64,000 nucleotides of DNA, taken from assembly GCF_013167455.1 (NCBI RefSeq), contig NZ_CP038328.1; one strand, 5' to 3'. How positions within the stretch are numbered: position 1 is the stretch's first letter; every line of letters starts with the position of its first letter. Of this stretch, positions 396 through 482 are shown one piece after another. The DNA is from Escherichia coli O157:H7. GTDB taxonomy: Bacteria; Pseudomonadota; Gammaproteobacteria; Enterobacterales; Enterobacteriaceae. Made by a program: the position numbers.

Positions 396-482
396 TAATC
401 CCTTCGGAGTTTTAGTCACCAGGCGGGCGCTTCCAGTAAGCAGCCCGCTTTGGGCTACTTAAATTGAACGCCTAAAAGATAA

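Follow-up and report, generated by a model that had tools for sequence, protein, structure and literature searches.

Introduction

The S7 protein of Escherichia coli reportedly differs between strains K and B, a difference in the protein that is said to have been described by Reinbolt et al. in 1979. Its explanation at the level of DNA is reported to come from Post and Nomura (1980) and from Johanson and Hughes (1992), and SsrA tagging of the long K-12 S7 is said to have been found by Schaub and Hayes (2011).

Strain comparisons bear on the same gene. Browning et al. 2023 (PMC9997739) list rpsG among the changes common to EMG2, MG1655 and W3110, and RpsG and RF-2 are among the differences between NCM3722 and MG1655 (Lyons et al. 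2011, PMC3045373). Browning et al., with reference to Collier et al. 2002 and to Schaub and Hayes 2011, link the K-12 S7 extension with the weak RF2 (Thr246), with SsrA tagging of S7 and with the rluD phenotype. Mass spectrometry showed that the UGA of K-12 rpsG can be read through, with Trp or Cys inserted (PMC11126739). The difference between short and long S7 is already known and published, together with the weak RF2 of K-12 and the SsrA tagging of S7.

Here, we analysed the corresponding site in a stretch of 64,000 nucleotides from E. coli O157:H7 (contig NZ_CP038328.1), hereafter the window. The observations as a whole are best explained if rpsG in the window is the ordinary wild-type allele and the long S7 of K-12 is the product of a known one-base stop-loss, a reading to which we assign a probability of about 0.93 and whose allele assignment no observation contradicts. 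As a discovery this carries little weight, since the short and long forms of S7 belong to the textbook differences that separate K-12 from other strains. A single lead is mildly new, namely a hairpin in the spacer between rpsG and fusA and its relation to the K-12 mutation.

The end of rpsG and its counterpart in K-12

The window starts at nucleotide 74 of the 471-nt rpsG gene. Around the junction with fusA it contains the following features, all on the + strand.

1-398, +: 3' part of rpsG (uS7), from translation and from the RefSeq annotation of the O157:H7 record; reading frame 3-398
396-398, +: TAA stop codon of the 156-aa S7, with T399 next (context UAAU); A397 is T in MG1655-type K-12 (TTA, Leu157)
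399-464, +: 22 in-frame codons after the stop, here 3' UTR and rpsG-fusA spacer; in MG1655-type K-12, residues 158-179 of S7
465-467, +: TGA, stop codon of the long K-12 S7, without a role here
480-482, +: TAA, second in-frame stop ahead of fusA, read from the sequence
485-488, +: GAGG, Shine-Dalgarno sequence of fusA, read from the sequence
495-2609, +: fusA (elongation factor G), with its ATG at 495 and in the same frame as rpsG

Translation of frame 3-398 gives a protein that ends in ...KAFAHYRW directly before the TAA at 396-398, which is exactly where an earlier note, made from this DNA alone, had placed the end of S7. In RefSeq the gene is annotated as 30S ribosomal protein S7, with 471 nt and 156 aa (WP_001138043.1). 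Pfam PF00177 (Ribosomal_S7) is recorded for the identical 156-aa protein, which makes it a member of the uS7 family, and the window S7 matches S7 chains of ribosome entries in the PDB. These entries hold both lengths of the protein, 179 or 178 aa in 351 of them and 156 aa in at least 44. With its stop at codon 157, right after ...HYRW, the window carries the B-type short allele. A tuf gene at 2680-3864 and, in matching records, rpsL upstream give the order rpsL-rpsG-fusA-tufA.

No stop signal of E. coli terminates translation more efficiently than UAA with a U behind it. Translation of S7 in the window ends at the UAA of 396-398, with U as the next base, and yields a protein of 156 residues. 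The 96 nt after the stop would be left as an untranslated spacer between rpsG and fusA.

Over positions 340-500, the window and K-12 BW25113 show a single difference, which is A397 here and T in K-12 (TAA to TTA). Having A397 in place of this T, the window does not carry the long allele, defined by TTA at codon 157 and a 179-aa product ending at UGA. The rpsG ORF of BW25113 translates to 179 aa. A comparison of the stop region with K-12 rpsG had been suggested in the earlier note, together with the claims that K-12 S7 has 179 aa with a TTA leucine codon in place of the stop and that the two states are one base apart. Both agree with the BW25113 sequence, in which TTA is present, the change at 397 is the sole one between 340 and 500, and the downstream frame gives the K-12 tail. 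The 22 in-frame sense codons and the TGA that closes them at 465-467 had also been read correctly, down to the peptide.

A transversion of A397 to T (UAA to UUA, Leu) abolished the stop in the EMG2/MG1655/W3110 branch. Ribosomes of this branch translate 22 more codons of the spacer up to the UGA at 465-467, producing the 179-residue "K-type" S7. In annotation, the long allele has a side effect: PGAP calls the functional and essential rpsG of BW25113 (locus L001, 252-719) a pseudogene, "incomplete; missing C-terminus", owing to the loss of the ancestral stop.

RNA structure in the rpsG-fusA spacer

Spacers between rpsG and fusA were gathered by an exact-protein look-up and a pattern scan of metagenomes, which gave 53 distinct Enterobacterales sequences (loci L003-L005, L087 and L093-L150). 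The metagenome pattern fixed TGGTAA and the ribosome-binding site of fusA. Because TGGTAA was fixed, the metagenomic spacers are uninformative on the state of the stop codon, and although GAGGA is unchanged in 41 spacers, the collecting pattern itself demanded GAGGA. The part of the spacer on which the comparison centres is a stem-loop.

419-453, +: RNA hairpin CCAGGCGGGCGCUU-CCAGU-AAGC-A-GCCCGC-U-UUGG, -21 kcal/mol

The fold of this hairpin has a z-score of -3.26, with one of 200 shuffled sequences folding as well. We scored its nine outer pairs in a plain MAFFT alignment of 41 distinct spacers. The pairs were formed in 90.8% of cells and five of the nine were compensatory; one pair that changed on both sides, for example, occurs as A-U, G-C, U-A and G-U. 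Not one of 500 shuffles of this alignment reached the covariation score, the paired fraction or the number of cells with both sides changed. When partners were slid as a control, 31-54% of cells paired, compared to 84-86% for the structure.

A covariance model built from the alignment of 41 spacers found a single site in the 64 kb of the window. Of the 80 named species that served for the S7 comparison below, it matched in Enterobacterales only (Acerihabitans, Yersinia and Photorhabdus, with a weak match in a Pantoea symbiont), and it also matched the Salmonella-like locus L087. In the model-fitted alignment of 52 distinct sequences, which as a model-based alignment leans towards the modelled structure, 11 of 14 pairs were compensatory and 0 of 500 shuffles did as well on all five measures. 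Rfam returned no family for positions 396-494, either at E <= 1 or at the gathering thresholds.

These comparisons lend good support to the view that the spacer holds a conserved structured RNA across Enterobacterales, with base pairs kept by compensatory substitutions. The spacer DNA is conserved in this order because it encodes the RNA hairpin at 419-453. Likewise, peptide-like recurrences such as SHQAGAS, YANQAGAS and SHANHAG appear because the conserved hairpin underlies them, and part of the S7 tail of MG1655-type strains (13 residues) would be the hairpin read as protein.

Conservation of the spacer could also have another origin, namely a second operator for S7, or an element that couples translation of fusA to termination of rpsG through pairing with the fusA Shine-Dalgarno sequence, rather than a hairpin at an RNA 3' end. 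S7 is known to repress translation of the str operon through the rpsL-rpsG spacer (PMC3616713). However, the similarity between the rpsL-rpsG and rpsG-fusA spacers was at chance level when the two were aligned locally in four genomes with 500 shuffles each, with 85, 51, 443 and 467 of the 500 shuffles scoring as high, and the second operator was rejected. The motif GAGUUUU(G/A)G, common to the two spacers, and GUUUUGGA(C/U)AA in the Salmonella-like locus are most simply taken as coincidence. As for coupling, the minimum-energy fold of the whole spacer does pair 402-406 with the fusA Shine-Dalgarno region at 484-488, but this fold is ordinary (z-score -0.99), and the helix is paired in 69.5% of cells with 0 compensatory changes. 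The pairing of 402-406 with 484-488 was rejected since it has no covariation support. We consider both roles unlikely and keep to a conserved 3'-end hairpin as the reason for the conservation of the spacer.

The open frame after the stop codon

The earlier note had spoken of an "exactly preserved extension" downstream of the stop. What holds is the identity with the K-12 tail. Preservation as an ORF does not hold, the spacer being nearly invariant within the species and holding an RNA hairpin. The tail is identical to that of K-12 because both belong to the same species and lie one base apart, and not through coding conservation.

A run of 22 open codons after a stop has a chance of (61/64)^22 = 0.35 and is unremarkable. 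Among the 53 spacers, the rpsG frame remains open past the stop for 0-27 codons, with an immediate stop in 7 of 53, and the length of the spacer is not a multiple of 3 in 15 of 53. In three of the 53 (the Salmonella-like L087, and L124 and L147) nothing stops the frame before the fusA ATG, into which it continues. Across these 53 spacers, the downstream frame is not conserved as an ORF in relatives, contrary to what would be expected of a readthrough extension. Because frame length and spacer length vary, and three spacers lack a stop, the tail is not kept as coding sequence. Judged by its sequence, it is the rpsG-fusA spacer and neither a latent nor a maintained coding sequence.

The K-12 mutation is survivable since E. 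coli merely happens to have a stop downstream. In the Salmonella-like sequence (L087), and also in L124 and L147, the same stop-loss would fuse S7 to EF-G.

Some further observations concern these loci. Although the spacer is not an ORF, its length is divisible by 3 in 38 of the 53 sequences, which may merely reflect the relatedness of the sequences. In L087, positions 1969-2070 correspond to the region 396-497 of the window, and rpsG and fusA share a reading frame there. The loci L087, L091 and L092 are Salmonella-like in appearance.

It could still be argued that the tail is open since the TAA is subject to regulated readthrough in wild strains, with a long S7 as a minor isoform. The frame of 22 codons is open and ends in a stop, and readthrough products do exist in E. 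coli, including the one at the K-12 rpsG UGA (PMC11126739). Yet 35% of such runs are expected to be open by chance, the frame varies among the 53 spacers in the ways given above, from its number of codons and immediate stops to spacer lengths outside multiples of 3, and conservation tracks base-pairing rather than codons. Furthermore, the stop in question has the UAA-U context that terminates most efficiently in E. coli. We therefore regard regulated readthrough as very improbable and return to an ordinary short allele followed by an untranslated spacer.

Codon 157 across genomes and the identity of the strain

The earlier note had proposed a survey of the stop and sense states across E. coli genomes, which we carried out with 41-nt queries centred on base 397 and megablast with 28-nt seeds. 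At a query length of 41 nt, every such seed includes base 397. Of 5426 complete E. coli genomes, 5071 contain the TAA 41-mer and 348 the TTA 41-mer. Over the 221 nt that surround the site, identity is 99% or more in 5425 of the 5426 genomes, and six of these 5425 agree with neither 41-mer. From the 348 TTA genomes, 60 were sampled evenly, and all 60 have names of K-12 derivatives (MG1655, BW25113, DH1, DH5alpha, AB1157, HB101, MC4100, TG1, J53 and others) or, at 4.46-4.74 Mb, a genome size like that of K-12. The TAA form is present in E. coli B and ATCC 8739. In a wider assembly collection, an exact-protein index holds the 156-aa S7 in 99528 blocks and the 179-aa form in 14419. The rpsG-fusA junction also occurs in one record with a plasmid label, which is probably a piece of chromosome under the wrong label.

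Outside the species, an S7 query found 80 species from Photorhabdus and Yersinia to Betaproteobacteria among the matches listed. In 80 of these 80 other species, S7 ends with ...(Y/F)R(W/F)-stop at the homologous position, and its length ranges from 151 to 159 aa, with 156 aa in 64 of the species listed. Because the S7 of all 80 listed species stops at the homologous codon, the sequences identify the 156-aa S7 as the ancestral and nearly universal form. An ancestral 156-aa S7 had also been claimed in the earlier note, and the counts of 5071 TAA against 348 TTA genomes point in the same direction.

Within K-12, strain NCM3722 is instructive. This strain belongs to the WG1-like branch of K-12, encodes the 156-aa WP_001138043.1 (locus L154, 3951-4421) and agrees with the window at every base of 340-500, among them the TAA. 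Because a K-12 strain has TAA, the long S7 is specific to the EMG2/MG1655/W3110 branch and not to K-12 overall, and the stop-loss therefore arose during the laboratory history of K-12, in the EMG2/MG1655/W3110 branch. The lists of strain differences in Browning et al. 2023 and Lyons et al. 2011 are in agreement with this origin.

The opposite direction of change would make the long S7 the original form of E. coli and the TAA a derived nonsense mutation that spread. Apart from the one-base relation, which has no direction of its own, nothing speaks for it. It is refuted by the outgroups, with 80 of the 80 other species listed stopping at the homologous codon, and it is at odds with 5071 TAA against 348 TTA genomes, with the confinement of TTA to laboratory K-12 derivatives and with the TAA of K-12 NCM3722, all of which leaves it scarcely credible. 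A sequencing or assembly error in a K-12-like sequence, the last explanation of the TAA, has nothing in its favour, is refuted by the identical 41-mer in 5071 complete genomes and by the single mismatch in 50 kb to an O157:H7 chromosome, and has a negligible probability. The TAA in the window is read, as before, as the wild-type stop of a short S7.

The TAA had further been offered as independent evidence that this DNA is not from K-12. The conclusion is correct, but the argument fails, because K-12 NCM3722 carries TAA and TAA alone is no proof against K-12. What identifies the window is its similarity to O157:H7: its first 25 kb have 100% identity to O157:H7 chromosomes, and positions 1-50000 contain one mismatch, at 46937, to O157:H7 NZ_CP066753.1. 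In addition, the chiA and gspA-M genes of K-12 are absent between tufA and rpsJ of the window. This interval (3865-5632) contains only bfd, bfr and a short prepilin-peptidase gene (4787-5254, - strand), whereas the corresponding interval of NCM3722 contains chiA and gspA-O in full. It follows from the distribution within K-12 that the long S7 is unfit as the sole marker for typing a sequence as K-12.

Elsewhere in the window, dprA (25343-27781) is split by an IS3-family element at 26301-27514, which contains an ALIL frameshift pseudoknot at 26582-26698. The acrF gene (42088-45237, - strand) is a pseudogene with an internal stop according to the near-identical O157:H7 record (1 base different in 50 kb). 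In the rRNA operon at 31454-36799, the spacer encodes tRNA-Ile and tRNA-Ala, and a tRNA-Thr separates two 5S genes.

An RNA 3' end next to the hairpin

The spacer hairpin can be compared with RNA 3' ends that were mapped in K-12, where one of them falls directly behind it.

454, +: equivalent of an RNA 3' end (Term-seq, MG1655); mapped in K-12, with the coordinate carried over through identical sequence

In the published data (PMC7815308, supplementary files 1 and 3), this MG1655 3' end is at 3473555 on the minus strand, which is 41 nt upstream of the fusA ATG, +526 in K-12 rpsG and one base past the hairpin. With 106444 reads it is comparable in magnitude to the 3' end listed just downstream of tufA (89838 reads at 3470093), and coverage is 850 upstream and 590 downstream of the end at 3473555. 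The position is outside a Rho termination region, with a Rho score of 1.24, and its intrinsic-terminator score of 1.37 is under the threshold of 3.0. It is listed in one of three growth conditions (LB, OD 0.4), and the column for regulatory elements is blank. A second MG1655 Term-seq 3' end coincides with the start codon of rpsG (3474080); it falls within the region of the S7 operator (locus L002, 200-256), which is outside the window.

The GC-rich stem-loop of an intrinsic terminator is present at 419-453. There is no U-rich tract, as GCUACUUAAAUU comes directly after the stem, and a scan with a terminator consensus returned no terminator-like site at the spacer hairpin. A canonical intrinsic terminator was rejected on the negative scan and the low published score of 1.37. 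One clade among the collected spacers has CUUUUUU right after the stem. Because the terminator score is below 3.0 and the scan was negative, processing of the RNA at 454 is equally possible as termination. The hairpin most likely defines or shields the 3' end of an mRNA, by acting as a weak attenuator or by stopping 3'-5' exonucleases. Such a 3' end would leave the rpsL-rpsG RNA stable and the fusA-tufA RNA somewhat reduced.

The 540-nt ORF of MG1655-type K-12 extends past the mapped 3' end, which at +526 precedes the UGA. RNAs that end there would therefore be non-stop messages for S7, an essential and highly expressed protein. We tentatively suggest, as a possibility that we ourselves hold doubtful, that a hairpin specific to Enterobacterales sets the 3' end of the rpsL-rpsG RNA and that non-stop S7 messages hence occur in MG1655-type K-12. 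If this is true, MG1655 ribosomes would need rescue by tmRNA or ArfA, with tagging after about Leu175. Such tagging would come on top of that already published for S7 at the weak UGA, and of the sensitivity to rluD and prfB defects that is specific to K-12. It could account for some of the burden that ribosome rescue bears in K-12 in particular, with the most-used laboratory strain translating a conserved hairpin. In the strain of the window, an RNA ending at 454 would be expected to keep a complete rpsG with its own stop.

Comparison with known systems

Among described systems, the one of PMC2965389 has the same operon position as the spacer hairpin, and the likeness is one of position only. 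Intercistronic hairpins at RNA 3' ends, which act as weak attenuators or exonuclease barriers, are another. The hairpin of the window resembles them in having a GC-rich stem between cistrons and, in the MG1655 data, an abundant 3' end with a partial drop of coverage downstream. It differs from them in that it has no U tract in E. coli, a low terminator score and no entry in Rfam, and its function is putative.

For the protein, the S7K of MG1655, W3110, BW25113 and EMG2 agrees with the window in residues 1-156 and in the DNA of the spacer. The two differ in codon 157, which is TTA in S7K and TAA here, and S7K has 23 additional residues and ends at UGA. The stop-loss of K-12 rpsG stands on the same published list as rph-1, the ilvG frameshift, prfB Thr246 and rfb-50, the lesions of the MG1655/W3110 lineage. 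Relative to this list, the window shows the unmutated state of rpsG, the other loci being outside the part studied. Finally, the S7 of E. coli B and other non-K-12 strains ("S7B", WP_001138043.1) is the same protein as that of the window, without any difference.
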